From NCBI GenBank assembly GCA_016929435.1, contig JAFGIV010000006.1:8071-72070 (forward strand): a stretch of 64,000 bases of DNA. Reading direction: 5' to 3'. The position numbers were made by a program, and so were the translations under genes. Position 1 is the stretch's first letter, and the number at the start of each line of letters is the position of its first letter. Below the pieces are notes generated by a model. The model made no database searches. It was not told the origin of the DNA and saw only the letters and a list, made by a program, of their open reading frames with translations. The stretch comes from Candidatus Uhrbacteria bacterium. GTDB taxonomy: Bacteria > Patescibacteriota > Patescibacteriia > SG8-24. This document shows, in pieces, positions 9,781 through 58,458 of this stretch.

Positions 9781-9983
9781 TAGGGAATGTTCGTTTTTTG
9801 GCATTCACTCTCGTCCCTCTTCCCGTATGGGGTTTCGGTTTTCTGAAAAACCCGTTCCCCAAACTCTTCCCCGTTACGCCGTGCCGAACCCCCCATGTCC
9901 GCAACATTAGGTGAAATACACGGAAAGTCTTGTCGGTAAGATGCTCAAAAGTAATCAATTTTTCATTTATTATGAACACGACA

Positions 9984-10028
9984 ACAGAAAAAGCCATACC
10001 TTAACGGTATGGTTTTTTCTGGTAGGCC
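9984..10028. repeat. att-like direct repeat, copy A (tRNA-Glu 3' tip plus downstream hairpin)
   Basis: acagaaaaagccataccttaacggtatggttttttctggtaggcc matches 14150-14194 (acagcaaaagccacgccttaacggtgtggcttttgctggtagccc) at about 38 of 45 nt. Ends with the TGGTAG(G/C)CC tRNA 3' terminus. Confidence 0.6.
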
Positions 10029-11034: not shown

Positions 11035-12249
11035 TTAGTTTGTGATAATGGTCGGGTTGCCCTGTAGGTTTATGGTGTTGATATTTTTGAAAGAGCTTAA
11101 TGAGAAAATTTGGATGTCTTCATTTCCTGGTCGAGTTACAAATATCTCATTATTGATGATTATAGCATCTTTTGCCGCAAAGAGATACTGGTCATGAGTA
11201 TCCACGTCGTCAATCAGGTCCCCTGTTTTTTTGTCTATGATGACAATGCCCCCTTTTTCTGTTAACGGGTCACCGGTGCTGTCAGAATATATCATTAGGA
11301 CATAATTTCTGTGAATTAATAATTTTGGATTAGAATGTCTTGGGGTGACAAGGTATTTGGAGTCGTCTTTTATTTTGTTGTAAATAACCAGAACAGTATT
11401 GCCTTTCGGGTAAACAGTTTCTTTAGATATTTTAACATCGTTTTGTTCATTATAGTCACCTATAAACGGCATCCAGTAGGATTCACTTGGCGGATCATAG
11501 GCTATGTCAGCAGGATATACGTCAGCAATTTTTTTAGTAATTAGTAAGTCGATACTGCTGGAAAAATCAGGATAGACAATGGCTACATTGTTGCCCTCGT
11601 TTCCTCCAGATCCATGCATAATTGGTATGTACACTTGGCCGTCATTTAATAGCCGAGGCTTTCTGGGTGATCCCGGCAGGTTTTTGACAGTTTGTATTTC
11701 ATTCGTCTCAGAATCTAGAATTGATATTGCCCACCCGCTGCCATCTTTGTATTCAAATGAATGGACGATGTAAGCATTTCCTTGGTTGTCGAAAGTCATC
11801 TGTTCTGGGAGTGCCTCAGACTGTATTTTTGCTACAATTTTTTCTTCGTTTGGATTGATGATCGCAATATGGGCTGTGATTTTTTTTTTGCTCGACGACT
11901 GTTCTTTTGGCTTGACCGATACGCTTGCGTAGAGATGGCCATTTGGAGCAAAATCTATATCGGCGACGTAGTAGTACTTTGGGTCGGCGATTTGGAGACC
12001 GTGTCCGATCTGCTCTCTGGTTTTTGCATTAAAAAAATATACGAAGTTTTTGTTGACTAAGATTGCAAACTGATTATCATCGCGTTCGATATTTGGCAGG
12101 CGTCCAACATGTTCCAGCCCTAATTCAGCATCGTTATTTTTTGGTGTACGACTCTTGTGGCATATAGCGCCAACAGCACATGTTGCCACGAGTGCGATGA
12201 TTGACACGGTTACCATTGATAATTTTATTTTAGTTCGTGGTGTTTGCAT
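11035..12249 (-). CDS. Membrane-anchored beta-propeller-like protein (YVTN/YncE-like repeats), island cargo
   Basis: N-terminal TM (VTVSIIALVATCAVGAI). Repeated blades such as ISILDSETNEIQTV and IVIIDKKTGDLIDDV. AT-rich. Confidence 0.65.
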   Translation of the reverse strand: MQTPRTKIKLSMVTVSIIALVATCAVGAICHKSRTPKNNDAELGLEHVGRLPNIERDDNQFAILVNKNFVYFFNAKTREQIGHGLQIADPKYYYVADIDFAPNGHLYASVSVKPKEQSSSKKKITAHIAIINPNEEKIVAKIQSEALPEQMTFDNQGNAYIVHSFEYKDGSGWAISILDSETNEIQTVKNLPGSPRKPRLLNDGQVYIPIMHGSGGNEGNNVAIVYPDFSSSIDLLITKKIADVYPADIAYDPPSESYWMPFIGDYNEQNDVKISKETVYPKGNTVLVIYNKIKDDSKYLVTPRHSNPKLLIHRNYVLMIYSDSTGDPLTEKGGIVIIDKKTGDLIDDVDTHDQYLFAAKDAIIINNEIFVTRPGNEDIQIFSLSSFKNINTINLQGNPTIITN

Positions 12250-12349
12250 ACTGCATGTAGAAAAGTTGTATTTTTAAATACGTTTCATAGAAATTATATA
12301 TGGTAATGAAAGATAGCAAAAGATTGATATTTTTAGAGCAGGCCGGCTA

Positions 12350-12403
12350 CGCGCCCAGTGGAACACGCTTTGGAGTGTCCCCCATACGTTAGACAGACTT
12401 CCC
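12350..12403 (-). pseudogene. Pseudo-tRNA fragment (D-arm/anticodon-arm half related to tRNA-Glu)
   Basis: gtgtcccccatacgttagacagacttccc versus the tRNA-Glu gene gtgtcctaaccgttagacgaacgggcc (shared cgttagac, gtgtcc, cacgcttt). Also shares a 13-nt CGCCCAGTGGAAC motif with the sequence just right of repeat copy A. Confidence 0.3.
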
Positions 12404-12428
12404 ACGGAGAGGGCATAATCAAGAACGT

Positions 12429-12705
12429 ATGGCAAAATACGTAGACAGGGACCTGAAGGAACAGGTTCTCCGGGCCGTCAGGGACGGCATGAAGGTCTCC
12501 TGGGCCAAGGCCAAGTTCGGGGTCAGCGACAACGTCGTGTGCGGCTGGCTCCGGGTCCAGACAGACAAAAAGCCAGGACCTTGCGGCCCTGGACTGGATT
12601 GAGATCGAGAGGCGCCTGGACAGCCTGCCCCGGAAGTCGCTCGGATACCTTACGCCCAACGAGGCACTGAATCAATACCTGGAGGGTGGTGCAATTAAGG
12701 GTTGA
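12429..12705 (+). pseudogene. Decayed IS30-like (rve/DDE) transposase remnant: N-terminal HTH fused out-of-frame to the C-terminal tail
   Basis: MAKYVDRDLKEQVLRAVRDGMKVSWAKAKFGVSDNVVCGWLR (HTH), stop, then frame-shifted IERRLDSLPRKSLGYLTPNEALNQYL, which resembles the IS30 C-terminal LNNRPRKTLGxKTPxE motif. The segment is GC-rich inside the AT-rich island. Confidence 0.5.
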
Positions 12706-12769: not shown

Positions 12770-14032
12770 ATGTTTTTCATAAGATTAAAAATTGCATCGA
12801 CGGCATTTTCCTTGTTGGCGGTCATGTTGCTTTCGGTTACTTTGGCCGTGCCGACGGCCAAGGCTGACGGGTATGTCAATCTAACCTCACCAAATTATAC
12901 GGAGTATGGCACTACACTGACGGCCGGAGAACACGTTACGGTAAAGTGGGGAAGCGCATTGTCCAGCGTTAGTTTGGTTGACGCAACAGTATGGGTAAAA
13001 GAGTCGACGTCTACCGGTTCAAATGACGTTTTTTATTCTAATATTGCCGTTAACGCACCCCCAACGCATAGCGGCATAACTTGGACGGTTCCTCAGGAGC
13101 TTACCGGAAAGGCCATAGCCTTCCGGGCGGAAACGAAGGATGCCTACGGAAACCATCTTGGATTCTCTCACAGCGATGTCTTCACCGTCATTTCCCAATC
13201 AAATAACCAGAAAACTGTCAGTCATATCAGCATGACGTCTCCATGTCATTCAGGTATTAATTCTCCATTTGTGGTCGGTGATTATGTGCAGATCAAATGG
13301 GGAAATGTATCCTCTGATATCCGTACCGTAGATCTGTCAGTTTGGGCCAAGACCCCGTACGAATCGACGGAACAGCTCTATTCGAACATTCTTCTAAGCG
13401 CCTCTCCAAACCATGGTGGCGTATCGTGGCAAATCAGTCAGGATTTGTCGGGGAAGAACATTTCGTTTAGGGCTAATGGAAAAGACGCCTACGGAAACCT
13501 TTTGGCTTCCGACAGTACTAATGTTTACAGTGTCGTATCCAAACCAGTTGCGACCCAAGCAACAGGGGTAAGCTATCAGAATTGGGTATCTGAACAAGCA
13601 ATGTCTGCCCCTACGATATCAGCCGATAAGGGATTGCCTTCGACTATCGTGTCGGGTTGTACGACCGGAACCCTGTTCAGAATCGCCTCCAACCCAGCAG
13701 TCTATTATTGCGGGACCGACGGAAAGAGGTACGCTTTCCCTGATAGCCACACCTATTTCTCTTGGTACGAGGATTTTTCCGGAGTAATTACGGTGTCCGA
13801 CAAAAGTATCGGAGCGATTCCCTTTGGTGGGGTTGTCTTTATGAAGCCTGGAACTCTGGTTAAGATCGCTTCTGACCCCAAGGTTTACGCTGTTTCCAAG
13901 GGAGGCACCTTGAGGTGGGTCAGGACTGAATCTGTTGCTTCACAGCTGTGTGGCACAAACTGGAATCGCAAGGTTATTGATATCTCACCGGCATTCTTTT
14001 CGAATTACGTAATGGGTGAGACTTTAGAGTAA
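12770..14032 (+). CDS. Secreted protein with two about 130-aa internal repeats and a C-terminal domain shared with CDS 45530..47287
   Basis: Signal peptide MFFIRLKIASTAFSLLAVMLLSVTLAVPTAKA. Repeats (...VTVKWG...FRAETKDAYGNHLGFSHSDVFTV / ...VQIKWGN...FRANGKDAYGNLLASDSTNVYSV). The C-terminal about 120 aa (LFRIASNPAVYYCGTDGKRYAFPDSHTYFSWYEDFSGV...DPKVYAVSKGGTLRWV) are homologous to the C-terminus of the protein at 45530..47287. Confidence 0.75.
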   Translation: MFFIRLKIASTAFSLLAVMLLSVTLAVPTAKADGYVNLTSPNYTEYGTTLTAGEHVTVKWGSALSSVSLVDATVWVKESTSTGSNDVFYSNIAVNAPPTHSGITWTVPQELTGKAIAFRAETKDAYGNHLGFSHSDVFTVISQSNNQKTVSHISMTSPCHSGINSPFVVGDYVQIKWGNVSSDIRTVDLSVWAKTPYESTEQLYSNILLSASPNHGGVSWQISQDLSGKNISFRANGKDAYGNLLASDSTNVYSVVSKPVATQATGVSYQNWVSEQAMSAPTISADKGLPSTIVSGCTTGTLFRIASNPAVYYCGTDGKRYAFPDSHTYFSWYEDFSGVITVSDKSIGAIPFGGVVFMKPGTLVKIASDPKVYAVSKGGTLRWVRTESVASQLCGTNWNRKVIDISPAFFSNYVMGETLE

Positions 14033-14149
14033 TTTGCGCCATTGCAGAATCGGGCTTCCTGGCGATCGGTGCAGATGGATTTGCGTATCGGTGTCAGGGA
14101 CCGTTATTACTGACAATTTTTTTGGGGTAGGGAAAGAAAGCTCTTAGAA

Positions 14150-14194
14150 ACAGCAAAAGCCACGCCTTAACGGTGTGGCTTTTGCTGGTAGCCC
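14150..14194. repeat. att-like direct repeat, copy B (overlaps the tRNA-Glu 3' end and its terminator hairpin)
   Basis: See copy A at 9984-10028. Hairpin gccacgcc-ttaa-cggtgtggc flanked by A and T runs. Confidence 0.6.
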
Positions 14195-29072: not shown

Positions 29073-29396
29073 ATGAACGGTATTTATAGGACAATTTGTC
29101 GCTGGTTCTTGCCGCCGATGGACAGGGTGGAGATGCGACGCCATTACGGCCTGCCGGAGACACTCAACCTTTCCTTCCGAATCACGCCGGACGGGTGGTT
29201 TGCTGTCAGCTCGCCGGACTTGCCGGGGTTCGTGACCCAGGCGCGAAGCCGCAAGGAATTGCTGACGGCTCTCAACGATGCCGTGCTGACTTATTTTGAT
29301 GTTCCCCGGCATTGCGGCGAGGTGGTGTATGACCAACTGAACATCGGTGGCGAGGTCGTCACCTTCGAGGGTGCGCTTAAGGTCAGCCACGCCTGA
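29073..29396 (+). CDS. hicB: HicB-family antitoxin (UPF0150)
   Basis: LSFRITPDGWFAVSSPDLPGFVTQARSRKELLTALNDAVLTYFD matches the HicB N-terminal domain (xxPDLPGCxxxGxTxEEALxxAxEAL). Confidence 0.7.
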   Translation: MNGIYRTICRWFLPPMDRVEMRRHYGLPETLNLSFRITPDGWFAVSSPDLPGFVTQARSRKELLTALNDAVLTYFDVPRHCGEVVYDQLNIGGEVVTFEGALKVSHA

Positions 29397-29408
29397 CTTG
29401 CGCCAACA

Positions 29409-29657
29409 ATGGGGACGTGGAACTTCACGACCAAGCAATGCGTCCACGCCCTTCGGCGACTCGGTTTCTTTCTCTGCAACAAGGGGCGGCGGGGCGACCA
29501 CGACAAGTATTGCGTGCCGGAGCACCTGAAACGCCAAGGCTTCGCTTTCATCATGGTGCCACGCCACAATGACCTGCATTGCCAAGAGGAAATCGTGAAG
29601 GAATTGCACGCCCTCGGCGGCGACGACCTGATCCAGAAATTCAAGGAAAATCTATAG
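29409..29657 (+). CDS. hicA: HicA-family mRNA interferase toxin (YcfA-like)
   Basis: CVHALRRLGFFLCNKGRRGDHDKY...FIMVPRHNDLHCQEEIVKELHALG fits the HicA pattern (LxxxGFxxxRxxGSHHxx...VPxHxxL). 12 nt after hicB. Confidence 0.7.
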   Translation: MGTWNFTTKQCVHALRRLGFFLCNKGRRGDHDKYCVPEHLKRQGFAFIMVPRHNDLHCQEEIVKELHALGGDDLIQKFKENL

Positions 29658-29690: not shown

Positions 29691-29749
29691 TTATATGGCG
29701 GAATGGGTAACAGCTTGACGTGAGACCGTGATTAGCAAGATACCGTGCC

Positions 29750-29789
29750 CATAAAGTCTCCTGTGCCTGCCCTTCGGGGGGTGTAGGGG
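29750..29789 (+). repeat. Promoter-proximal leader repeat RepX copy 1 (CATAAAGTCTCCTGYGCCTGCCCTTCGGGGGRGTGT)
   Basis: About 38 of 40 nt identical to 33887-33927. Both copies start about 7 nt after a TTGAC(G/A)-17-(-10) promoter with identical spacing. Confidence 0.6.
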
Positions 29790-29790
29790 T

Positions 29791-30000
29791 GGGCAAAACC
29801 GGAGTTCCAGTCGTTGGTTATCAGCCGCACCGCCTGAAACCGTTGCCGGACCATCCGGACCGTACCGCCACCTGAGCCGTTGTCCACGACGATCACCTCG
29901 AAACGGACACCGTGGTCCAGCGCAAAGAGTCGCTTTAGGTTGTCATGCGGCAGCTCCCGAACCTTCTATGTGACGATGATGACGCTGACGTCGATTTTGG
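29791..30000 (-). pseudogene. GT2 glycosyltransferase 5' fragment (partial duplicate of the 5' end of gene 27144..28100) with in-frame stop
   Basis: Minus-strand translation VSVIIVT*KVRELPHDNLKRLFALDHGVRFEVIVVDNGSGGGTVRMVRQRFQAVRLITNDWNSGFA; about 70% nucleotide identity to 27786-27990. Confidence 0.6.
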
Positions 30001-30061: not shown

Positions 30062-30841
30062 TTAGTCCAGCTTGGCCTGGGTGATGAAGGTTGGGAACAG
30101 TTTCACCTTTTGGGCATCTTGGGCATTGAACAGGAATGGCTGGACATCTCGGGCCAGCCCATCGAAATCAAGGTCCTTGATTATTTCTCCGATCTTCAAC
30201 CGAAGGGATTTCGAATCGCTGACGCCTATCTTCAAATTGAGATAGGGATAGTTCGGCTTAGCGAAGGAGAGCAGAAAGACGATATCGAAAAAATCACGCC
30301 CCTTGGCCCTTGGTCGGTTGGCGATCGCCCATATTTTCCGGGATAGGAGGATATCCGTCGGCGTTACGAAAATCTTCGAGAAAACGTCGAAGCGGTTCAA
30401 TATCCTGCTTTCGGGTCGGTACTCGAAACCGTGGGTCAGACTGTCGATTTGGATGAGTATCTTTTCCCCCTCATGCGGGGACAGGTCGTTGGCGAACAGG
30501 ACATTCGGCAGACGAATCCGACAGCGGTAGGCCTCCTTTCCGGCCAGACTGATTTCCACCGCCATGCCCTGGGCCTCCAGACCAAGGCGGACCTTTTGCG
30601 CCAAGGCCCCGAATTCGTCCTCGTTCAGTCCGAAGTTGTCGAAATCCAGGTCCTCGGAGAATCGGGTGTTGTCGTGTACGATCCGCAGGGCCGTCCCGCC
30701 CAGGAAGGAAAGTTTCGGGGCAAATTCCGAGGCGAAGATGATCTCCAGAATCTTGAACTGCAGGTATTCCCGGAGCAGGTTTTTCTTGTATGGCCTAAGC
30801 GGTGCCGGGTATTGCTGCTCGATCTGTTGGAGGGTAAGCAT
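30062..30841 (-). CDS. abiEii: AbiEii nucleotidyltransferase toxin (DUF1814), type IV TA / abortive infection
   Basis: LSFLGGTALRIVHDNTRFSEDLDFDN is the AbiEii/DUF1814 hallmark (fkGGTAL...RfSEDiDf). Lower GC than surroundings. Confidence 0.85.
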   Translation of the reverse strand: MLTLQQIEQQYPAPLRPYKKNLLREYLQFKILEIIFASEFAPKLSFLGGTALRIVHDNTRFSEDLDFDNFGLNEDEFGALAQKVRLGLEAQGMAVEISLAGKEAYRCRIRLPNVLFANDLSPHEGEKILIQIDSLTHGFEYRPESRILNRFDVFSKIFVTPTDILLSRKIWAIANRPRAKGRDFFDIVFLLSFAKPNYPYLNLKIGVSDSKSLRLKIGEIIKDLDFDGLARDVQPFLFNAQDAQKVKLFPTFITQAKLD

Positions 30842-30843: not shown

Positions 30844-31461
30844 CTATTGGGTTTTGATCATCTTAAGCAATTTCTCCAGCCGGTTCATCAGCCGCCGATT
30901 TCCGAATTCCGTGGCGTATCGGCGCAACTTGTCCTCATCCATATTGGCGGTGAATTCCCTTCCGTTGAACCGCCATTCGTGGTAATCGGCATCATCGGTG
31001 ATTTTCGGGTTCAGGTACAGGTAGTCAAGGACGGCCTTCTCCATCTCGGCGATCTTGTAGCCCTGCCCGTTCAGCTTGTCGATCCGATAGCCGAAGTGCA
31101 GTGAGGTTTTGAGGTGACGGTAGGTGAAGTGGGCCAAGGGCGTCTGAAAGGAGACGGTTTTCCTGACGGAGACCGAGGTAATCGAATAGACCCCTTCCGG
31201 TATCAGTCCATAGTGCGAAAGGGCCGACTCCAGGGAGACATAGGAAGGGGAGTAAAGGCGGTTGGCGATCAGAAAAAGGGTTTCCTCGTCGATATTTTGA
31301 TCAGAAAAGGAGTAGTAACCGCGGCGTATCTTCTTGATGTAACCCTTTTTTTGCCATTCAACGAGTCTTGGGCTATAAAATTTTGGCTCAACCTTGCGGA
31401 TATCGTTTAGGGAAAAGATCAGAAAACCTTTCAGTTGCTCCCTAAGTTCTGCTATCTTCAT
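30844..31461 (-). CDS. abiEi: AbiEi antitoxin / transcriptional regulator
   Basis: N-terminal LREQLKGFLIFSLNDIRKVEPKFYSPRLVEWQKKGYIKKIRRGYY matches the AbiEi N-terminal wHTH. Immediately upstream of abiEii. The ATG at 31461 is preferred over the TTG at 31482, which lies inside the operator palindrome. Confidence 0.8.
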   Translation of the reverse strand: MKIAELREQLKGFLIFSLNDIRKVEPKFYSPRLVEWQKKGYIKKIRRGYYSFSDQNIDEETLFLIANRLYSPSYVSLESALSHYGLIPEGVYSITSVSVRKTVSFQTPLAHFTYRHLKTSLHFGYRIDKLNGQGYKIAEMEKAVLDYLYLNPKITDDADYHEWRFNGREFTANMDEDKLRRYATEFGNRRLMNRLEKLLKMIKTQ

Positions 31462-31466
31462 ATTTA

Positions 31467-31512
31467 TTATAATTCCGAACAATACTAATATTAGTATTCT
31501 TTGGAATTATAA
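31467..31512. promoter_or_regulatory. Nested 46-bp palindrome (likely AbiEi operator)
   Basis: ttataattcc-gaac-AATACTAATATTAGTATT-cttt-ggaattataa; inner 18-bp perfect palindrome with outer 10-bp arms. Confidence 0.5.
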
Positions 31513-32029: not shown

Positions 32030-32797
32030 ATGCAACTGTCATTCGATATCTCCCTTGCCGAACAATACAAGAGCCGATCCCAGGCCATTCGGGTCATGAC
32101 CGAATCGTGGGTTAGGAATACGATTTTTTGTCCCGGTTGCGGTCAGGATATCAGTGAATATCCCAACAACAACCCGGTCGGGGATTTTTTCTGTTCTCGG
32201 TGTTCTGAGGATTACGAGCTGAAGAGTAAATCCGGTAAGTTTACGGGCAAGGTCGTCGATGGGGCCTACCGGACGATGATCCAGAGGTTGGAGAGCGACG
32301 ACAACCCCAATTTTTTTCTCCTTAACTACAATCCGGACGTCAATGAGGTTACCGATCTGGCGGTCATTCCCAGGCATTTCTTTACCCCGAAGATCATCGA
32401 GAGGCGCAAGCCGTTGTCGGTCGGTGCCGATAGGGCCAACTGGGTCGGCTGCAATATCCTGATTCGAGATATCCCGAACAGCGGGAAGATATTCTATGTT
32501 CGGGGCGGACAGGTCAATACCAGGAAGAAGGTCATGGATGACTGGCAACGAACCTTGTTCCTGCGCGAAACGGGTAAGCCTGACCTGCGGGGATGGACTT
32601 TGGACGTCATGAAATGCATCGACGACATCGGCAAATCGGTATTTTCGTTGGATGATGTTTACGCTTTTGAGCCGGTTCTGTCCAAGAGACACGTCAATAA
32701 CCGCCACATTAGGGATAAGATTCGCCAGCAGCTGCAGGTCTTGAGGGATGGGGGATATCTGGAGTTCGTTGGGAGGGGAACCTACCGTCTTATATGA
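32030..32797 (+). CDS. DpnI-like methyl-directed (Type IIM) restriction endonuclease
   Basis: MQLSFDISLAEQYKSRSQAIRVMTESWVRNTIFCPGCG...DFFCSRCSEDYELKSKSGKFTG...DGAYRTMIQRLESDDNPNFFLLNY...KIRQQLQVLRDGGYLEFVGRGTYRLI aligns along its full length with S. pneumoniae DpnI (MELHFNLELVETYKSNSQKARILTEDWVYRQSYCPNCG...). Extended -10 (TGgTATGAT) upstream. Confidence 0.85.
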   Translation: MQLSFDISLAEQYKSRSQAIRVMTESWVRNTIFCPGCGQDISEYPNNNPVGDFFCSRCSEDYELKSKSGKFTGKVVDGAYRTMIQRLESDDNPNFFLLNYNPDVNEVTDLAVIPRHFFTPKIIERRKPLSVGADRANWVGCNILIRDIPNSGKIFYVRGGQVNTRKKVMDDWQRTLFLRETGKPDLRGWTLDVMKCIDDIGKSVFSLDDVYAFEPVLSKRHVNNRHIRDKIRQQLQVLRDGGYLEFVGRGTYRLI

Positions 32798-33078: not shown

Positions 33079-33558
33079 ATGCAACCCGACTTTTCCCGCC
33101 AGCTGATCAAGGGCAAGATCGCCGAGGTGGTCTTCGAGCAGATGTTTCGCGACACCGGGCGGTTTACGGTAATTCCGTTCGGGTATGAGACGGTCATGCC
33201 GGAACTCATGCAGTACGCCATGGGCGAGGCCTATCGGGACCTGGTGGACAACATCCGGAACGCCCCGGACTTCGCCATCGTCTCCCATAACCCGGACGAG
33301 GTCTTTCTGGTGGAGGTGAAATACCGGCCGAAGATGAACGCCGAGGACGTCAGGAAGTACGCCAAGGTCATCTACGAGCGCTGGAAGCTGGCCTGGCTGT
33401 TCTACGCCACCCCGGAAGGCTTCTTTTTGGGCAAGTGCACGGACCTCCTTGGGGACGATTCGCGGATCAGGCCCCTGGACGAGCGGTTCGTCAGCCGGGA
33501 CATCCAGGACAGGCATTTGCTGCTGCTTCGGGAGTTTTTGGGAAATAGGGGAGGGTAA
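33079..33558 (+). CDS. PD-(D/E)XK-superfamily nuclease-like protein (hypothetical)
   Basis: APDFAIVSHNPDEVFLVEVKYR gives the D...(D/E)VK signature. N-terminus KGKIAEVVFEQMFRDTGRFTVIPFGYE resembles an Mrr-cat-like core. Confidence 0.55.
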   Translation: MQPDFSRQLIKGKIAEVVFEQMFRDTGRFTVIPFGYETVMPELMQYAMGEAYRDLVDNIRNAPDFAIVSHNPDEVFLVEVKYRPKMNAEDVRKYAKVIYERWKLAWLFYATPEGFFLGKCTDLLGDDSRIRPLDERFVSRDIQDRHLLLLREFLGNRGG

Positions 33559-33607
33559 GGGGGTCAATCGCACCGTGTCGGTTGCGCCACCGGTCCTTTG
33601 GCACGCA

Positions 33608-33664
33608 TAAAACCGCCAGCTTGCGCTGACGGTTTTGTGGTGGGCGGCAGAGGAGTCGAACCTC
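33608..33664. repeat. 57-nt direct repeat: displaced copy of the tRNA-Val 3' end (28 nt) plus its downstream hairpin
   Basis: aaaaccgccagcttgCgctgacggttttgtggtgggcggcagaggagtcgaacctct; 56 of 57 identical to 34702-34758. Confidence 0.8.
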
Positions 33665-33852
33665 TATCAGCCAAAATCAGGGGGAGGCTAAAGCAAGTCA
33701 AAAAACCAAGAAAAGAGTCTCTACACAAACAAGATACCGATTATCACAAGTCGCCGTTGGCCAGCGTCAACCGCCGCAACCCGTCACTTCGTGGGCAACC
33801 CGTGGGCAACACTTCGGGGGAGGTGGTGGGGTGTGGTTGGGGATAAAGCCTA

Positions 33853-33881
33853 TTGACATTCTGGGAATAGGTTGCTATTGT
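33853..33881 (+). promoter_or_regulatory. Sigma70-like promoter (TTGACA-17-TATTGT) driving RepX copy 2 / NYN gene
   Basis: -35 33853-33858, -10 33876-33881. TSS predicted at the first base of the RepX repeat. Confidence 0.5.
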
Positions 33882-33886
33882 AGAGG

Positions 33887-33927
33887 CATAAAGTCTCCTG
33901 CGCCTGCCCTTCGGGGGAGTGTGCAGG
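33887..33927 (+). repeat. RepX copy 2: leader hairpin followed by a T-run (terminator/attenuator-like)
   Basis: cataaagtctcctgcgcctgcccttcgggggagtgtgcagg followed by acttttatttttatt. Imperfect stem TCCTGCGC/TGTGCAGGA enclosing CCC-TTCG-GGG. Confidence 0.55.
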
Positions 33928-33967
33928 ACTTTTATTTTTATTGTTAAAAGGATAAAGTGCGTTTATT

Positions 33968-34633
33968 ATGCGCATCCAAATTTTTATAGACGGCGGCAAC
34001 TTCCACCACTTGGCCCTGAAGCCCCTTGGTCTTCAGGAGGCAGATTTCGATTTCGACGGGTTTGCCTCCTTCTTGGCTGATGGGCGTCAGATTACCGAGA
34101 TAGGCAAGCGGTACTATATCGGCACGGTCCGAGAAAGGGAGGGAGACGAAAGGAGTAGGGTGGCCATGGCCAAGCAGACAAGACTTTTCAACGGGTTAAA
34201 AGGGACCGGTTGGGCCATAAAGACCAGCAAGCTGCGCACACGAACCGAGAGGGTTCGGATTGATGCGAGGGTTGTTGATTGCGAAAGCCTTTTGACCTTG
34301 GGGATTACCGAAGTCGTATATAATACGTTTCGAGAAAAGGGCATAGATGTCAAAATCGCCACGGACATGGCGGCGGCGGCAGTTGATGACCGTTGTGAGG
34401 TTCTAATCGTCGTCAGTTCCGACACCGATCTGGTGCCGATGATTGATTGGGTAAGGAACCGTTACTCCAAGAAAGTCGAATATATCGGTTTCTCAATACT
34501 CGCCTCATCGGGTGACGCCATGGTCAAGCCAACCCAGCAACTGATCGCACGGACTGATCGGCAGAGGGTCCTGGTGGAGAGTGACATCAGGAAATTTGTC
34601 AGGACGGAAAAGCAGGTCGCCTTGATCGATTAG
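33968..34633 (+). CDS. NYN-domain (LabA-like, PIN-fold) putative RNase
   Basis: MRIQIFIDGGNFHH...KGIDVKIATDMAAAAVDDRCEVLIVVSSDTDLVPMIDW matches the NYN/LabA pattern. Confidence 0.8.
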   Translation: MRIQIFIDGGNFHHLALKPLGLQEADFDFDGFASFLADGRQITEIGKRYYIGTVREREGDERSRVAMAKQTRLFNGLKGTGWAIKTSKLRTRTERVRIDARVVDCESLLTLGITEVVYNTFREKGIDVKIATDMAAAAVDDRCEVLIVVSSDTDLVPMIDWVRNRYSKKVEYIGFSILASSGDAMVKPTQQLIARTDRQRVLVESDIRKFVRTEKQVALID

Positions 34634-34655
34634 AATAAGCTGGACGATGATACGG

Positions 34656-34684
34656 GGCCGCTCATCGAGAGCGGCTTTTTCTAT
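34656..34684 (+). terminator. Rho-independent terminator
   Basis: gccgctc-atcgag-agcggc followed by tttttct. Confidence 0.7.
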
Positions 34685-34701
34685 TTTGATTGAGGCAACA
34701 A

Positions 34702-34758
34702 AAAACCGCCAGCTTGTGCTGACGGTTTTGTGGTGGGCGGCAGAGGAGTCGAACCTCT
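34702..34758. repeat. 57-nt direct repeat (intact copy: tRNA-Val 3' end plus terminator hairpin)
   Basis: Pairs with 33608-33664. Confidence 0.8.
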
Positions 34759-34887: not shown

Positions 34888-37458
34888 TCAGGACCTGTTC
34901 TCGTCTTCCGTCCCGCCATCTTCCCCTTCCGGAAGGCCCTTCCCGCTTTCCTTTCCGTCCGGCGGTTGGGGCGGGCCGCTGACGGGGATCTGGAAGTAGA
35001 AGGTGCTGCCCTTGCCCTCCTCGGACTCGAACCAGACCCTGCCCCCGTGCATCTCCACGAACCGCTTGGCGATGTTCAGGCCGAGCCCGGAACCCTCCAC
35101 CTCGCTGGCCTTGGCGTTGGAGGCCCGGAAGAACATGCCGAATATCTTGTCCTGGTCGCCTTTCGGTATGCCCATTCCGTTGTCCTGGACCCTGACCAGG
35201 ACCGAACGCCCGGCATCGGCCAGGCTGACCCTGACCGACACCTGGCCGTTGTTCCTGCTGTATTTGACGGCATTGGTCAGGTAGTTGTCCAGGACATGCC
35301 GGAGCAGCTTGTCGTCCCCGACCACCTCCAGGAACCCCACCTCGCCGGTTTCGCAGGTCAGGTTGATTCCGCGGTTGGAGGCTATCGGCATGATGGAGGT
35401 ACAGGACTGTTGGGCCAGTTCCCCGAACGGCACCTGCTTCAGGCCTATCTCGATCTTACCGCGCTCCAGGCGGGATATCCTCATCAGGTCATTGACCAGG
35501 TTGCGCATCCTGTCCGAGGCTTCCGTCAGCATGGCGGTCAGGTCCTTCTGCTGCTGGGTCATCTTCCCATCGTCGGTCTCTATCGATTCCAGGGCCCAAC
35601 GGAAGGCGCTGAGCGGCGTCTTGAGCTCGTGGACCGTGAAGGCGATGAAATCGCGCTGTTCCTGGACCTTCCGGTTCAGCTGGTCGGACCTGGTCTCGAT
35701 GGCTTTTGCCATCCGGTTGAAGGTGTCGGAAAGCTTCCCGATCTCATCCGGGTATTTGACTGCGATCGGATCCGGCTCCATTCCGGCTTCCAGCCGTTCG
35801 GCCTCCAGCTGCAGGGGGCGGAGCGGCCGGAGCGGCACCTCCACCGCCCTGAACAGGAAATAGGTCAGGATGACCAGGAAGGAGAAGGTCCATACGTTGA
35901 TGACGGAAACGATTCGCAGGGTTTCCCGGTCGTAGTCGGCCTGGGTGATGATGACGAACAGGGATCCGGGATCGTTGGCCGTCGGGACGTTCATGTACAG
36001 GTGGCCGTTATGGTCTTCCGTGGGGGTCAGGTGCCATTGCCCCCTTCGGACCATTCCGTAGAGCCGTTCGGCCATCCCCTCCGTGTTGTTGCTGTGGTGG
36101 CGGTCCAGGATGATCCGTCCGGTGCGGATGTTGAACCACCCGCAGCCGCTGATCGGCATTTCCCCGCCGTACCTGCAGGCGCTGACGATGTCAACGGTCA
36201 GCGGTTCCGTGACCGCCAGGATCCCGACCGCCTGCCCCCGTTCGTCCCTGATTTGGGCGGCCACGGTCATCACCAGGTCGATCGGTCCGGTGGCGTTTCG
36301 GTCGAGGCTGATGTCAATGTCGGATTGGTCGGTCAGGACCTCGGCGAAGAACGACTGGCCGGGTTGCGGGTAGGGGATACCGTCCGTCGATGTCTCCCGG
36401 AAGACCGGGTTGCCGGCCGCATCGAATACGGACACCCGGCGGGAATCTTCCGTTTCCGCTGTGGGGTGGGGGATGCCGTTCCGGTAATCGGTGAGGATTC
36501 CGGCATATTGGCCGCTTTCGGCACGCTGTTCCGCCGCGGCCTTCAGGTTGGCGTATTGGATGTCCATGGACTGGTCCGCGATTCCCAGGGAATGGGAGAT
36601 GTGCATCTGGTGTTCGGACTGGAGGATCTGTCCGACCATGCGGTCGGCCACCAGGAACATGAGCAGGAAAGCGGATACGCAGAAGAAAATTCCGGTCATG
36701 GAGAGGAGCCGGTATACGATCCGTCCCCTCACCAGGGTCATCGGTTTTTCCCGAACCGTCCTGTCGGGATGGCGTTTCGAGACCATTCCCAGGTAGCGGG
36801 TAAACACCGAGGCCAGAAGGATGAGGTATACGAGCGGGATCCCGGACTCGAAGTTGGTGACCAGTAAGGTGCCGATGGTCATGGCCATGAGGATGGTCAG
36901 GATTCCGCCGACGAAAAGGTAAAGGTCCCCGCCGTTCGGCGTCCCGTTTCGGCGACCCCTGAACCAGGCCACTCCGGCCAGGACCGTGGCAATCAGGTGT
37001 ATCGCCATCCAGGTTCCGTAGTTGGCCAGGTAGTTGACGACGTTGTCCACCGGGACGTTTACCCCGAACACCTGGCGGGAGATGTCCCATCCCCAGGTCA
37101 TGGCCGCCAGTATGCCCATTACGATGGCCGCCGGCACGAAAACGTTCTGCTGGCGGCGGGTCATGAACAGCTGGCTGGTGATGTAGGCCACCAGGATCGT
37201 GCTGGTCAGGTTGATTTTCGGGGGGAGTCCGGCGATCTGCATCCCCAGGGTGGTGAACCCCTGGGCCTGGAGAAGCTGGGCGGCGACATCCGTCAGGTTG
37301 CTGACGGCCAGGATCAGGTAGAGGATTCCGACCGCCAGCAGGTACCGTTCTTTTGTCCGCTTCTTGAATTCCTGGAAGGCAGCGATGCCAAGGCCTATTT
37401 CCAGGACGGCGATCGTCAGCATGATGAAGGCCGTGGAGAATTGGAGAAGGAATCTCAT
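34888..37458 (-). CDS. Large membrane sensor histidine kinase (multi-TM N-terminal domain, extracytoplasmic sensor, HisKA, HATPase_c)
   Basis: H-box FTVHELKTPLSAFRWALESIE. VQDNGMGIPKGDQDKIFGMFFRA, GSGLGLNIAKRFVEMHGGRVWFESEEGKGSTFYF. At least 8 predicted TM helices in the first 280 aa. Confidence 0.9.
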   Translation of the reverse strand: MRFLLQFSTAFIMLTIAVLEIGLGIAAFQEFKKRTKERYLLAVGILYLILAVSNLTDVAAQLLQAQGFTTLGMQIAGLPPKINLTSTILVAYITSQLFMTRRQQNVFVPAAIVMGILAAMTWGWDISRQVFGVNVPVDNVVNYLANYGTWMAIHLIATVLAGVAWFRGRRNGTPNGGDLYLFVGGILTILMAMTIGTLLVTNFESGIPLVYLILLASVFTRYLGMVSKRHPDRTVREKPMTLVRGRIVYRLLSMTGIFFCVSAFLLMFLVADRMVGQILQSEHQMHISHSLGIADQSMDIQYANLKAAAEQRAESGQYAGILTDYRNGIPHPTAETEDSRRVSVFDAAGNPVFRETSTDGIPYPQPGQSFFAEVLTDQSDIDISLDRNATGPIDLVMTVAAQIRDERGQAVGILAVTEPLTVDIVSACRYGGEMPISGCGWFNIRTGRIILDRHHSNNTEGMAERLYGMVRRGQWHLTPTEDHNGHLYMNVPTANDPGSLFVIITQADYDRETLRIVSVINVWTFSFLVILTYFLFRAVEVPLRPLRPLQLEAERLEAGMEPDPIAVKYPDEIGKLSDTFNRMAKAIETRSDQLNRKVQEQRDFIAFTVHELKTPLSAFRWALESIETDDGKMTQQQKDLTAMLTEASDRMRNLVNDLMRISRLERGKIEIGLKQVPFGELAQQSCTSIMPIASNRGINLTCETGEVGFLEVVGDDKLLRHVLDNYLTNAVKYSRNNGQVSVRVSLADAGRSVLVRVQDNGMGIPKGDQDKIFGMFFRASNAKASEVEGSGLGLNIAKRFVEMHGGRVWFESEEGKGSTFYFQIPVSGPPQPPDGKESGKGLPEGEDGGTEDENRS

Positions 37459-41714: not shown

Positions 41715-41845
41715 GTGGGGTGGGCGCGCTCGGATATTTGTCTTGGCCCCCAAACCCCCTCCCTGCGGGAGACCTGCGCCTTCAGGGGCTTAAGGGGAAG
41801 GGGATTCCGGAACGAAAAAAAACCCGAGAGATCGGGTCTTTTTGG
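41715..41845 (+). repeat. Intergenic repeat R1 (alpha + beta modules: GCGCTCGGATATTTGTCTTGGCCCCCAAACCCCC...TCAGGGGCTTAAGGGGAAGGGGATTCCGGAACGAAAAAAAACCCGAGAGATCGGGTCTTTTTGG)
   Basis: Shares the alpha core with 42640-42712 and the beta terminator module with 43205-43272. Has a 21-nt insertion relative to R2. The beta hairpin loop is inverted relative to R3. Confidence 0.7.
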
Positions 41846-41874
41846 AAGTTGTTTTGGAGAGATTTGTGAGAGGT

Positions 41875-42549
41875 CTATGTCATGTTTTTCAGAGAAGAAT
41901 TTATTTTCTCCTCGGCTCTCCGGACGGCTTCTTTCAGGTATCTTTCTGCTGCCGGGATGTAATTGGTTTCGTATCGGTCTTTCTCACGACACAAACCCAG
42001 TCGTTGTTTTTCTAGGCTACGCACCTTTTTTACTATTTTTTCCGCATTGTCGAGATCCTTGTCGGTGAGTTTTTTTAATTTTTCGCACATTGATTTGAGT
42101 AGTAGGCCGTCGATTTCATCGACCTCTAACCTCAGTGCCTTAACCCGCTTTCCGCCGAAATGAAGCAGTTTTTTCGTCTGCACAATCGTTGGCGGTCCAT
42201 TTAGTCCGACATGAAACCCGGCGAGTTTTTGTTCCTTCGCCTTTCTGACCAGAATCAAGACCGGAACAACCGTAACGGTCAGTAATAAAAAGAATATCAG
42301 CATCAGAACGCTGAATATTTTTGTGATCATTTTATCAATTATATCGCACCCTTCCCTTGTTTCCCATCGGTAATCGATGGTTTTTTGAGACCTGTCGAGT
42401 GGTGCGACTATGAAGCCGATCATCCGTTCGTTGCAGAGCGGAGACTGTGTCAGAAAAAGTTTCACGTACAGGTGGCCTATGATCAGCCACGTTAAGATTG
42501 CCAGTGACAACAGAACTATCCACATCTTTACCTCCCTGACGGCGTTCAC
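41875..42549 (-). CDS. Hypothetical membrane protein (2 TM + coiled coil), low-GC
   Basis: 224-aa ORF, about 42% GC, between repeats R1 and R2. TM helices WIVLLSLAILTWLIIGHLYV and IFSVLMLIFFLLLTVTVVPVLILV. Confidence 0.5.
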   Translation of the reverse strand: MNAVREVKMWIVLLSLAILTWLIIGHLYVKLFLTQSPLCNERMIGFIVAPLDRSQKTIDYRWETREGCDIIDKMITKIFSVLMLIFFLLLTVTVVPVLILVRKAKEQKLAGFHVGLNGPPTIVQTKKLLHFGGKRVKALRLEVDEIDGLLLKSMCEKLKKLTDKDLDNAEKIVKKVRSLEKQRLGLCREKDRYETNYIPAAERYLKEAVRRAEEKINSSLKNMT

Positions 42550-42639
42550 CGTCTTTCGTTGTTAATTTGCGAACCGTTTGCCTGAAGCTTAGCGGGAGTC
42601 CGGGGAGGAGTCAAGGGGGTTGCGCTCTTGCGGGGACCG

Positions 42640-42712
42640 GCGTAGGGTGGGAGCGCTCGGATATTTGTCTTGGCCCCCAAACCCCCTTCAGGGGCTTAAG
42701 AGGAAGGGGATT
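42640..42712 (+). repeat. Intergenic repeat R2 (alpha module; contains left 34-bp IR 42667-42700)
   Basis: gggtgggagcgctcggatatttGTCTTGGCCCCCAAACCCCCTTCAGGGGCTTAAGaggaaggggatt. Confidence 0.7.
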
Positions 42713-43172
42713 AATTCAAATCTCATATGGGATTCCCCTCTGTTTCCGGTGCGGTTGGCGTGGCTAACACCTGCACCAAGAAGATCTATCCGGAGTTGGC
42801 GGAAGCAGCCAAGAGAATGCGGGACAATCCGACCGATACTGAGGCCCTGGTTTGGGCCCGCCTTTCCGGCAGACAGTTGGGGCACAAGTTCAGGAGACAG
42901 CACGTCATCGACCGTTTCATTGTCGATTTCTTCTGTCTTGAGAAATCGCTGGTCGTGGAGATCGACGGCGGAATTCACAATCAGACCAAAGATAGGGATG
43001 CGGAAAGGGATAGAATATTGAAAGTGTTGGGCTGTCAGGTATTGCGTTTTTCGAATCGGCAGGTATGGGACAATCTCGACGGGGTAATCGCCACCATTCG
43101 TCGGGAATTGGATAAGGGAATAAAAACTAAAATTTCCTCTTAAGCCCCTGAAGGGGGTTTGGGGGCCAAGAC
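42667..43172 (+). mobile_element. Candidate small mobile/selfish element: DUF559 gene bracketed by perfect 34-bp inverted repeats
   Basis: IR-L 42667-42700 gtcttggcccccaaacccccttcaggggcttaag is the exact reverse complement of IR-R 43139-43172. Single gene between them (DUF559); its stop codon lies inside IR-R. Confidence 0.5.
42727..43143 (+). CDS. DUF559 (Vsr/restriction-endonuclease-like fold) domain protein
   Basis: EALVWARLSGRQLGHKFRRQHVIDRFIVDFFCLEKSLVVEIDGGIHNQTKDRDAERDRILKVLGCQVLRFSNRQVW matches the DUF559 consensus. Likely start is the internal M at 42817. Confidence 0.8.
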   Translation: MGFPSVSGAVGVANTCTKKIYPELAEAAKRMRDNPTDTEALVWARLSGRQLGHKFRRQHVIDRFIVDFFCLEKSLVVEIDGGIHNQTKDRDAERDRILKVLGCQVLRFSNRQVWDNLDGVIATIRRELDKGIKTKISS

Positions 43173-43272
43173 TAAGCGGCACGCCCGGTGGGGGTGCCAT
43201 GGCCCCCGTAGGGGGATTTAGGGGAAGGGGATTCCGGAACGAAAAAGACCCGATCTCTCGGGTCTTTTTGGA
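43139..43272 (+). repeat. Intergenic repeat R3 (inverted alpha core = right IR, then alpha-tail + beta terminator module)
   Basis: cttaagcccctgaagggggtttgggggccaagac ... gggggatttaggggaaggggattccggaacgaaaaagacccgatctctcgggtctttttgg. The hairpin acccga-tctc-tcgggt plus T-run acts as a bidirectional terminator. Confidence 0.7.
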
Positions 43273-43283
43273 AAGGGAAGAAT

Positions 43284-43580
43284 TTATTCCCTCCCCAGCT
43301 CTCTCTCGATGCGTGCATAGAGTTCGGGGTATAATCTTTTTCTTTCCGTGTACCATCCCCCGAATTCTTCAACGGTCATCGATTTAACTTCCATGGCGTC
43401 TCGTTTCAACTTTCGGAGCTCCCTAAGCTCCTTTAGTTTGTAGTGTCTCCTTTTAGGACGTTTCAGGCGGTTTCGAGGGTTTTTCTTCCCCGATATCCCC
43501 CCTTTTTTCTTGATCGAAACGGTCATGGCCAGGATGACCACGATCGCCATTATCACGATCGCCATTATCAGATAGACCAT
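43284..43580 (-). CDS. Small N-terminally TM-anchored basic protein (hypothetical)
   Basis: MVYLIMAIVIMAIVVILAMTV followed by a Lys/Arg-rich segment. Internal 15-nt DNA direct repeat (atggcgatcgtg...). Moderate GC. Confidence 0.4.
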   Translation of the reverse strand: MVYLIMAIVIMAIVVILAMTVSIKKKGGISGKKNPRNRLKRPKRRHYKLKELRELRKLKRDAMEVKSMTVEEFGGWYTERKRLYPELYARIERELGRE

Positions 43581-56583: not shown

Positions 56584-57053
56584 TATGTCTGGGAGGTTGG
56601 CCAGACGGTCGCCCCGGTGACGAACCGGGGAGGAAAGTCCGAACACCCGTTCCGGCGCAAGCCGGGACGACCGGCGATAGTCGCTAACGGCGACCGGGTA
56701 TAAGGCGAAAGTGCGGCCGGCAACGGCCGAAAGGCCATGGCCGCAACTCGTCGAAGCCCAGGGAAAGTGCAACAGAAAACACACCGCCTGAACCCCGAAA
56801 GGGGTGAGGATTCGGATGAAGCCGAAAGGCCGACCCGAACCAGGTAAGGTTGAAATCGTGGGGTAAGGGCCCACGCGGGAGAGCCGGGTGACCGGCCCCG
56901 TGGAAAACGCCTATCCGGTGCAAGAGCAAGTTTGGTAGCTCGCATTCCGTTCCCAAAATCGGGGCGGAGGAGGCGGTCGGCAACGGCCGCTCAAGAGAGA
57001 TGACCGTCCGTTCCCTCCGGGGGACGACAGAATTCGGCTTATCGACCGGCCTC
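56584..57053 (+). ncRNA. rnpB: RNase P RNA, bacterial type A
   Basis: Conserved P4 GGAGGAAAGUCCGAACACC. AGUGCAACAGAAAACACACCGCC. CAGGUAAGGUUGAAAUCGUGGGGUAAGGGCCCACG. 3' GACAGAAUUCGGCUUAUCGACCGGCC pairing with the 5' end. Ends are approximate. Confidence 0.85.
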
Positions 57054-57061
57054 AAACGTCG

Positions 57062-57090
57062 AAACCCCTGCCCAAACGGCAGGGGTTTCG
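57062..57090 (+). terminator. Terminator hairpin after rnpB
   Basis: aaacccctgcc-caaac-ggcaggggttt; the T-run is weak. Confidence 0.5.
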
Positions 57091-57195
57091 TGATAAATTA
57101 CAGTTAGTTATTTGGCTGTTTTAAGCCATAATATTAACTATGTTTAGTTATTTTTATCTAATAATTAGATATTTGATACAATATTTTGTATTAAC

Positions 57196-57224
57196 TTGAC
57201 AGTTAATTATGGATACTCTATAAT
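57196..57224 (+). promoter_or_regulatory. Sigma70 consensus-like promoter (TTGACA-17-TATAAT) in an AT-rich islet
   Basis: Perfect -35 and -10 hexamers. Upstream direct repeats gttagttattt x2. Confidence 0.6.
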
Positions 57225-57262
57225 AAAAAACATAAGTTATTAAGAGCTATGGCTTAATAATT

Positions 57263-58450
57263 ATGATCAGAAAGATAAAATTCAGTAATTTCTATTCCTT
57301 TAATGGGGAACAGGAGATTGATTTTACGGCGACCAAGAAAAAGAACGACTATAGTTATTATAATTCGCCGGTGGGCGATCAAATCACCAAAGTGGCCGGG
57401 TTTATTGGTGATAATGCTTCCGGAAAGACGAATATTCTTCGTGTTTTTAGTTTTCTGGGGTATTTTATCTGCAGCCCATCTCGTCCGACCCTAGTTGATT
57501 TGCCTTTTATTGCCTATAAGGCTTTTTTTGGCAATTCAGAACCGTCAAGTTTTTATATAGAATTTGAAATAGACCAAGACATATACAAGTATTCCCTGAC
57601 CTTGAAAAACAACATTGTCGAATCTGAGAGTTTGAACGTCAAAAAAATCGGCAGTTTGGGTGCGTCGGTGAAGGTGTTTTCAAGGACACCAGACGGAGTA
57701 AAGCTAAATGATGAACTGTTCCGCGGTTTTGATGAGATGGAAGGGATGAAGAATATTCGCTCTGATGTTTCCTTGATTTCTTATGTTAGGGCTAATTATC
57801 AGATTGATGTAATTGGCAAGATTTTTAGTTATTTTTCGAATTTCGGCTTCAACATAAACGAACGGGGTGACAAGTTTGGTATCGGATATTCGGCAATCAA
57901 ATATCTGGAAGACGAACAGGTGAAGACAAAAACGGATAATTACTTCATAGGGTCCAATACCGGTTTGAAGGGTTTTAAGGTTGAAAGGGATAACATAAAA
58001 AACGAAAGGGGGGAGGATATTGTCCGTATCTCTGTTTGGGGTATCCATAACACGGAAAAAGGCGATACGCTGCTTTATTCCGATTACGAATCGACCGGAA
58101 CGAAATCGCTGTTCTGCATGATCGATAAGTTGACGTTGGCCATCAAAAATAACGGTGTGGCGATAATTGACGAAATCGAAACCGGTCTGCATCCGGAAGC
58201 GCTGTATAAGTTGATTGGATACTTCATCGACGAGAACGAGGAAAGCCGGGCCCAGCTGATCTTCTCTTCACATTCCTTGGAATTCATGGGTAAGTTGGAC
58301 ATGCAACAAATCTATTTGGTGGAGAAGAATGAGGATGGGGAAAGCCGGGCATATCGCTTGGATTCTGTTGAAGGTGTAAGGTCGGATGATAATTTTATGG
58401 CCAAGTACATGTCCGGAGCCTATGGGGCCTTTCCGGACATTCGGGTTTAG
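57263..58450 (+). CDS. AAA_21-family ABC-like ATPase (RloA/AriA/AbiLi-like), anti-phage module component A
   Basis: N-terminal IKFSNFYSFNGEQEIDF...AGFIGDNASGKTNILRVFSFL (Walker A). C-terminal VAIIDEIETGLHPEALYKLIGYF...QLIFSSHS (Walker B/D-loop). About 33% GC versus about 60% background. Confidence 0.85.
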   Translation: MIRKIKFSNFYSFNGEQEIDFTATKKKNDYSYYNSPVGDQITKVAGFIGDNASGKTNILRVFSFLGYFICSPSRPTLVDLPFIAYKAFFGNSEPSSFYIEFEIDQDIYKYSLTLKNNIVESESLNVKKIGSLGASVKVFSRTPDGVKLNDELFRGFDEMEGMKNIRSDVSLISYVRANYQIDVIGKIFSYFSNFGFNINERGDKFGIGYSAIKYLEDEQVKTKTDNYFIGSNTGLKGFKVERDNIKNERGEDIVRISVWGIHNTEKGDTLLYSDYESTGTKSLFCMIDKLTLAIKNNGVAIIDEIETGLHPEALYKLIGYFIDENEESRAQLIFSSHSLEFMGKLDMQQIYLVEKNEDGESRAYRLDSVEGVRSDDNFMAKYMSGAYGAFPDIRV

Positions 58451-58458
58451 GGTGTTCT

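Follow-up and report, generated by a model that had tools for sequence, protein, structure and literature searches.

A duplicated tRNA-Val 3′ end around a conserved NYN cassette in Candidatus Uhrbacteria: a possible scar of homology-based capture

How did a single conserved gene, encoding a NYN-domain protein, come to lie between two copies of the 3′ end of tRNA-Val in Candidatus Uhrbacteria, a bacterium of the candidate phyla radiation with a small genome? The DNA considered here, called the window, is a stretch of 64,000 nucleotides (nt) of contig JAFGIV010000006.1. Scars at tRNA 3′ ends are routinely taken for integrase footprints; at this locus the signature seems to have arisen without an integrase. 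The two copies, R1 (33606–33665) and R2 (34699–34758), are read here as the scar of a recent insertion, in which incoming DNA was captured through homology with no integrase needed; this reading is given a probability of roughly 0.5. The tRNA-Val scar is a variant of a known event, and the main points are the recurrent duplications around NYN cassettes and an unannotated leader RNA that precedes the NYN gene.

A repeat search of the window aligns R1 with R2 as a direct repeat of 60 nt, with 58 of the 60 positions identical. Both mismatches (33608/34701 and 33624/34717) are in the terminator half of the repeat, and the copies have a 41-nt core, GCTGACGGTTTTGTGGTGGGCGGCAGAGGAGTCGAACCTCT, in common. 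R2, the proximal copy, is composed of a 32-nt bidirectional terminator (34699–34730) and the last 28 nt of the tRNA (34731–34758), which begin with the T-stem and end with the encoded CCA. It belongs to an intact tRNA-Val(GAC) gene on the minus strand (34807–34731; CCA encoded), identified by ARAGORN and by a match of 69.7 bits to the Rfam tRNA family; the cloverleaf and the terminator both fold, the 32 nt downstream of the tRNA forming a 12-bp hairpin with an A-run on one side and a U-run on the other. R1, the distal copy, consists of the same terminator and a dead 28-nt fragment of the tRNA-Val 3′ end (33638–33665), which has the direct orientation relative to the intact gene; its hairpin sits 52 nt past the stop codon of a convergent open reading frame (ORF) of 159 amino acids (aa). 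Even when three mismatches are tolerated, the window contains just two occurrences of the 27-nt tRNA part, whereas 100 shuffles predict 0.00. A third copy of the repeat was not found by word-7 BLAST, which included 28–34 kb, where a degenerate copy was looked for as a boundary of the left-hand defence block. Run SRR13394437 supplies two Logan contigs that reach into the copies: L002 stops at 33654, within R1, and carries the R1-specific variant, and L001 spans 33718–34747, stops within R2 and carries the R2-specific variant. An earlier note on this DNA had described the repeat as comprising the tRNA-Val 3′ end and its terminator hairpin around a NYN unit, and had proposed an insertion at the tRNA's 3′ end; both statements hold, with the intact gene at one end and the displaced 3′ fragment at the other. 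Its figure of 56 identical positions out of 57 is also correct, but the register of its intervals was off by one, as 34702–34758 pairs with 33609–33665.

Comparison with related loci bears on which part of this arrangement is new. When metagenomes were scanned with the 28 nt of the tRNA end, 33 related tRNA-Val loci were recovered, each containing the same 28-mer; 31 of them have just one tRNA-Val, after which come a terminator and another gene. All 33 stand at family-level distance from the window, ValS being at most 69% identical. NYN is near tRNA-Val in none of the 33 loci. The host is a high-GC member of the Patescibacteria, and the GC content at third codon positions (GC3) of the NYN gene is 0.64, compared with 0.78–0.86 for the host genes on the tRNA side and 0.86 for the 159-aa ORF. 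The absence of NYN from the related loci and its deviant GC3 indicate that NYN at this site is a derived insertion. The hairpin that follows tRNA-Val has a different sequence in each of the 33 loci, and R1 and R2 alone share one (30 of 32 nt). Since the terminator is private to the lineage yet common to both copies, R1 and R2 should both derive from a single, species-level lineage and not from a foreign phage-type attachment site (attP).

The usual gene order in the related loci is valS, a 440-aa gene, tRNA-Val, tRNA-Ile(TAT), pseudouridine synthase, cmk and rplS; in the compared loci L083, L090, L091, L095, L101 and L102 the tRNA-Ile(TAT)/pseudouridine synthase/cmk/rplS group is within 0.5–3.5 kb of tRNA-Val. 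In the window, the 440-aa gene and valS lie to the right of R2, a histidine kinase gene (34888–37458) stands between tRNA-Val and the 440-aa gene, and pseudouridine synthase, cmk and rplS are found at 45.4–49.5 kb, on the other side of valS; tRNA-Ile is missing. The displacement of the relatives' downstream genes to 45–49 kb marks the 3′ side of tRNA-Val as a rearrangement point. Synteny followed through ValS yielded no usable empty site, the nearest species representatives being 64–65% identical and on short contigs. Two of the related loci, L083 (10704–10997) and L112 (5266–5457), possess a second tRNA-Val copy 113–211 nt downstream of the intact gene. These second copies have a perfect 3′ part (33–59 nt), lack the 5′ acceptor strand and are broken by a GC-rich, hairpin-forming insert of 53–104 nt; the insert of L112 has about 70% GC in a contig of 41% GC.

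The insert between R1 and R2 is 1,033 bp long and makes up one complete transcription unit, all of it on the plus strand. Its left end is a unique non-coding spacer (33666–33847), which has no homology to other NYN loci and contains a tandem 11-mer, CGTGGGCAAC(C/A), at 33790–33810. The spacer is followed by a promoter-like site, TTGACA-17 nt-TATTGT (33853–33881), read from the sequence, whose architecture recurs upstream of NYN in eight other loci, and then by the conserved NYN leader (33887–33939), comprising a 44-nt hairpin (33890–33933; −24.3 kcal/mol, z −4.2) and a U-tract. The NYN gene (33968–34633) encodes a LabA/DUF88-like NYN-domain protein of 221 aa with a PIN-like fold (Pfam PF01936, 3.7e-13) and has its own terminator hairpin, GGCCGCTCATCGAGAGCGGC, with a T-run (34654–34681), conserved with locus L116. 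NYN is the sole ORF found between the copies, in agreement with the earlier note, which had listed only a leader and a NYN gene there. The same note's suggestion of a decayed island finds no support, because the insert is a complete single-gene unit conserved across the Patescibacteria, not debris. There are 728 NYN homologues, mostly from Patescibacteria, and the family looks single-copy and is 55–78% conserved across hundreds of genomes. Among PADLOC models, the NYN/HEC-09 models alone matched the protein, partially; no match was found among the sequences of solved structures, and a literature search on NYN and Patescibacteria found no paper.

Conservation of the leader exceeds that of the protein. 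The leader hairpin, CATAAAGTCTCCTGYGCCTGCCCTTCGGGGGAGTGTGCAGGACTTTT, varies hardly at all upstream of the NYN homologues of the eight other loci, which have unrelated neighbours and whose NYN proteins are only about 60–78% identical to that of the window. In all nine Patescibacteria loci the hairpin of about 44 nt and its U-tract are placed directly after a promoter of sigma-70 type; promoter and leader together occupy 33853–33939 in the window, 2940–3022 in L116, 5890–5977 in L118, 5885–5972 in L120, 3915–4001 in L123, 3900–3983 in L125, 3895–3980 in L127, 3890–3979 in L129 and 1010–1092 in L131. The leader belongs to no Rfam family, and a permissive scan of 136 nt gave chance-level matches only. 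The hairpin is a candidate cis-regulatory RNA, which could act as an attenuator or a small RNA. Just past the hairpin, many NYN loci contain the motif TATGGTA, a possible start of a mini-ORF.

These nine loci (the window and the eight others) constitute the NYN survey, in which the window is not alone in having a flanking repeat. Direct duplications of unrelated host sequence, 29–526 nt in length, flank the NYN cassette in four of the eight other loci. In L116, 202 nt of the 5′ part of a flanking gene are duplicated (88% identity); in L120, the duplication is a hairpin of 70 nt (90%); in L123, it covers 526 nt of the RecQ promoter and 5′ region (87%), leaving a RecQ fragment of 161 codons upstream; and in L131, it is 29 nt long (97%). 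Each of these repeats has just two occurrences in its own locus. Both copies were recovered in independent assemblies for L120, L123 and L131, and the second assembly of L116 (L117) begins too near NYN to reach the upstream copy. Flanking repeats of at least 40 nt are found in three of the eight other loci, compared with 9 of 400 segments of 700 bp taken at random from the fetched loci (binomial p ~6e-4 against the control rate). The junction sequences of five NYN loci have no common motif and the boundaries of the cassette vary, with distances from NYN to the repeat of 1 to 898 nt; inverted repeats are absent at 33666/34698. Such varied junctions and distances point neither to a transposon with defined ends nor to a site-specific system with a common core. 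A transposon would be characterised by conserved ends or terminal inverted repeats, a transposase and a duplication of fixed length; the junctions of the five loci are unrelated, and the duplications measure 29, 60, 70, 202 and 526 nt. Between the two RecQ copies of L123, 39 codons differ synonymously and 21 non-synonymously, and in the fragment the context of the Walker A lysine is gone (GKS to EKS); a divergence so rich in synonymous changes suggests that most of it arose while both copies were functional, in different lineages, and not by decay of a duplicate in place. The neighbourhood of NYN differs in every lineage, and the GC content of NYN is at or below that of the host in all nine loci.

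To the left of the repeat pair, the window contains, as a relic, a second NYN promoter with its leader (29715–29797, plus strand; TTGACG at 29715–29720), and no NYN gene comes after it. Its 29750–29780 part is identical to 33887–33917 at 30 of 31 positions; the 3′ half of the relic is degenerate and forms no fold. The relic has a T where the active copy has a C, and the two promoters have only the −35 box in common; the active cassette is thus not a local copy of the relic. A tandem duplication of the leader-NYN-repeat unit, which would give the order leader/R1/leader/R2, is ruled out by the same differences in promoters and leader variants. To judge from the relic leader at 29750, the host may once have had an older NYN cassette that was destroyed and whose function the present one took over. 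Where the relic leader starts, a glycosyltransferase-2 gene is cut: the remaining pseudogene fragment (29780–29998, minus strand) covers the N-terminal 67 of 168 profile positions, lacks the C-terminal two thirds and contains an in-frame TAG. Before the relic NYN promoter lie two ORFs of 107 and 82 aa (29073–29657), with sub-threshold HicB-like (E 0.095) and HicA (E 0.019) matches, followed by a terminator; together the ORFs could form a divergent HicAB pair. L125 likewise has a degenerate second NYN leader (1124–1170), 2.8 kb upstream of the active NYN cassette of that locus. Genes of a diversity-generating retroelement (bAvd and reverse transcriptase) lie between the two, an arrangement that mirrors the relic and accessory block of the window; L125 has, in addition, a second, shorter NYN paralogue (7204–7731).

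From the sequence, we infer the following recombination route, donor and order of events. The donor would have been a closely related lineage in which the cassette stood beside the same tRNA-Val and terminator. Recombination across about 60 nt of homologous sequence, whether by single crossover of a fragment that had become circular or by homology-facilitated illegitimate recombination, would have placed the self-contained NYN cassette of 1,033 bp just downstream of tRNA-Val, duplicating the final 28 nt of the tRNA and, with them, the 32-nt bidirectional terminator. By either route the homologous stretch would be left doubled, on both sides of the insert, in the order R1, cassette, R2. R2 would then complete and terminate the working tRNA, and R1 would be a dead tRNA fragment with a terminator half that may still close the 159-aa ORF. 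The older resident NYN cassette would have been lost, with its relic leader remaining.

Homology-facilitated illegitimate recombination of incoming DNA is said to have been described by de Vries & Wackernagel and by Prudhomme et al., both in 2002. The window resembles insertions made in this way or by single crossover in having a foreign segment and a duplication of variable host homology without a dedicated recombinase or conserved junction, and relics of displaced resident modules persist in both. The NYN loci as a group match such capture: the duplicated host stretches vary in length, and no specific junction sequence was found. In E. coli, DNA with homology on one side was inserted mostly through single crossovers of circular molecules, which duplicated 109–950 bp of the homologous locus, and such events outnumbered true homology-facilitated illegitimate recombination (PMC3240628). 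An anchor model provides for the displacement of resident modules, with orphan relics left behind (PMC5361080). The homology at tRNA-Val differs from the experimental cases in being shorter, 60 nt as against 109–950 bp, and in that the event is deduced here from sequence only.

Several points weigh against capture by homology. The donor is hypothetical: a near relative with NYN beside tRNA-Val is needed, this arrangement was seen in none of the 33 related loci, and how NYN first came to lie at this site is left unexplained. The low GC3 of NYN implies an origin more distant than the terminator identity of 30/32 does, so at least two steps would be required. On the tRNA side, the repeat has its boundary precisely where the T-stem starts, a classic integrase sublocation, which under the capture model would be a coincidence, and two tRNA genes in one window have such scars, a typical outcome of integrase activity. 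The search for an integrase covered 64 kb of a 93.6-kb contig, with the whole-window screen made with one query. The NYN survey includes nine loci only, and the window was chosen for its repeat. Finally, the junction at 33655–33717 is covered by none of the independent contigs retrieved and is present in the window assembly alone.

Site-specific integration is the explanation that otherwise survives best, and a doubtful one: a tyrosine integrase, either provided in trans to an element that lacked its own or lost afterwards by deletion, would have left R2 as attL and R1 as attR. In islands inserted into tRNA genes (tDNA), the integrase gene lies inside the island and normally adjoins the tDNA. 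The locus shares with such islands the intact tRNA with a displaced direct 3′ fragment, which is their defining signature, as well as the deviant composition of the insert and the boundary at the T-arm (Islander, PMC4383910). The exact start of the identity block at the T-stem, the foreign-like GC3 of the insert and a similar scar at tRNA-Glu (see below) all speak for an integrase, and the tandem 11-mer of the spacer could be an arm-type site; as integrase arm sites, however, these 11-mers are ruled out, being on one side only. What separates the locus from tDNA islands is an insert of only 1.03 kb with one conserved gene, NYN, and no integrase between the copies. Recombinase domains were not detected by Pfam, NCBIfam, PADLOC or PHROGs in the ORFs of 24–38 kb and of low-GC patches, and phmmer with a single Patescibacteria XerC-like query against all ORFs of the window gave no match with an E below 0.03, nothing convincing. 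In the same single-query search, of limited sensitivity, none of the 33 related tRNA-Val loci showed an XerC-like tyrosine-recombinase ORF; among the ORFs of all loci in that screen, the query matched only itself and one ORF of a ValS locus. Within the 64 kb, the absence of an integrase between or near the copies, as reported in the earlier note, is thus confirmed. Its interpretation of the repeat as an integrase-type att scar is not, because the identity runs 32 nt beyond the tRNA into the lineage-specific terminator and because the same cassette is flanked elsewhere by non-tRNA duplications of 29–526 nt with no common core. With 32 of the 60 nt belonging to the terminator, the identity block is not independent of the host flank, and an attP would have to copy this host's own locus. 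In 2.9 million viral contigs, moreover, there is no match to the 28-nt core, the leader motif or the NYN protein.

The variant with an integrase in trans recalls the cis-mobilisable elements (CIMEs) of the Streptococcus thermophilus ICESt1 family, reportedly described by Pavlovic et al. in 2004 as att-flanked, integrase-less elements mobilised in trans. Direct att-like repeats at a tRNA-type site and a short insert without recombination genes are common to both. Unlike a CIME, the NYN cassette is complete and conserved rather than a product of decay, and no cognate integrative and conjugative element, integrase or attP was found for it in the 64-kb window.

A further explanation, considered unlikely, is that the NYN cassette itself is mobile: the promoter-hairpin-NYN unit would be a previously unrecognised mobile single-gene cassette of Patescibacteria that moves between genomes with neither integrase nor transposase and leaves relic leaders at places where it displaced older copies, the tRNA-Val repeat being one of its footprints. 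Insertion would take place at staggered breaks, for which the unit's own PIN-like nuclease may be responsible, and fill-in of the long, variable overhangs would yield long target-site duplications. Flanking duplications in five of nine loci, compared with 2% of controls, are what this predicts, and the changing neighbourhoods, the GC content of NYN relative to its hosts and the relic leaders in the window and in L125 agree with it. It is weakened by the lack of conserved ends or inverted repeats with distances from NYN to the repeat of 1 to 898 nt, by the mainly synonymous divergence of RecQ in L123, which fill-in would not produce, and by the four of nine loci without a repeat; nor does an apparently single-copy family, 55–78% conserved over hundreds of genomes and absent from viral contigs, look like a mobile one. 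As a mobile cassette, the unit may be a pair of an RNA and an RNase resembling type III toxin–antitoxin systems, an idea that comes from analogy of layout. The type III loci ToxIN, CptIN and TenpIN are said to have been described by Fineran et al. in 2009 and Blower et al. in 2012. The likeness is confined to the layout of the cassette (a promoter, a short structured RNA, an intrinsic terminator and a gene with an RNase fold) and to the location of the window cassette among defence genes. In contrast to those systems, which pair a tandem-repeat RNA with a ToxN/AbiQ endoribonuclease, the NYN cassette has a single hairpin without tandem repeats, its protein does not have the ToxN/AbiQ fold, and the family is distributed broadly, not patchily.

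Least probable is a local event or an artefact, that is, an in-place duplication of the tRNA-Val 3′ end with NYN between the copies by chance, or a mis-threading of the 41-nt core by the assembler that fused an empty site to another molecule, separate or variant: although two of the 33 relatives (L083 and L112) have a degenerate second tRNA-Val with no gene between, and the Logan contigs stop inside the common core, leaving 33655–33717 uncovered, each copy-specific variant is joined to its own unique flank in independent contigs, a 41-nt core is below normal read length and should resolve, tandem duplication does not put a unique 1-kb unit between the copies, and analogous NYN structures recur in independent assemblies of other genomes.

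If capture by homology is the correct reading, island-finding by the rule of a tRNA with a displaced fragment over-calls integrase elements in these lineages, and capture anchored on homology would rank as a significant means by which genes move in organisms believed to rely on taking up DNA.

On the left flank, the 159-aa ORF that converges on R1 (33079–33558, plus strand) has a host-like GC3, as given above, and a weak match to TnsA-like endonucleases; it encodes a small protein widespread in Patescibacteria. Its closest homologue is not beside a tRNA and is uninformative as to whether the R1 flank is native. Further left is a defence block of low-GC accessory genes outside the repeat pair: AbiEii (30062–30841, minus strand), AbiEi (30844–31482, minus strand) and a DpnI-type methyl-directed restriction enzyme (32030–32797, plus strand). 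The suggestion made earlier that this block is the remnant of the inserted element finds no support, as it lies outside the repeats with no third tRNA fragment there, and its far boundary is formed by the relic NYN leader and the truncated glycosyltransferase gene. Exact-protein look-ups with NYN and the DpnI-type enzyme returned same-sample contigs only, and the histidine kinase gave no match.

A comparable structure is found in the window at tRNA-Glu (14260–14186, minus strand), where a direct repeat of 46 nt (9983–10028 and 14149–14194, 85% identity) comprises the terminator and the last ~10 nt of the tRNA; changes in its hairpin are paired. Between the two copies lies a 4.1-kb block of 39–48% GC with four ORFs (10254–11018, 11035–12249 and 12333–12659 on the minus strand and 12770–14032 on the plus strand), which have no informative family match and include no recognisable recombinase. 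The same process seems to have acted twice, at tRNA-Val and at tRNA-Glu. Just before the tRNA-Glu low-GC block there is a LOOT RNA (8566–8686, minus strand; Rfam RF03000, 71.5 bits against a gathering threshold of 46.4).

Another stable-RNA gene, that of RNase P RNA, lies within 56593–58950; 465 nt of it are matched to a model of 367 positions, so insertions are present. It is directly followed by a gene pair of 37–45% GC, an AAA_21/OLD-like ATPase (57263–58450) and a 163-aa ORF (58459–58950), which looks like a defence insertion; a flanking repeat was not found around this pair. Just downstream of valS, the region 41715–43303 contains interleaved direct repeats, in which 41715–41760 corresponds to 42642–42687 (96%), 41785–41824 to 43212–43251 (90%) and 41891–41920 to 43274–43303 (83%). 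These repeats surround two ORFs of about 222 aa without a family match (41875–42549 and 42688–43356, minus strand) and represent either another insertion-duplication or a tandem gene pair.

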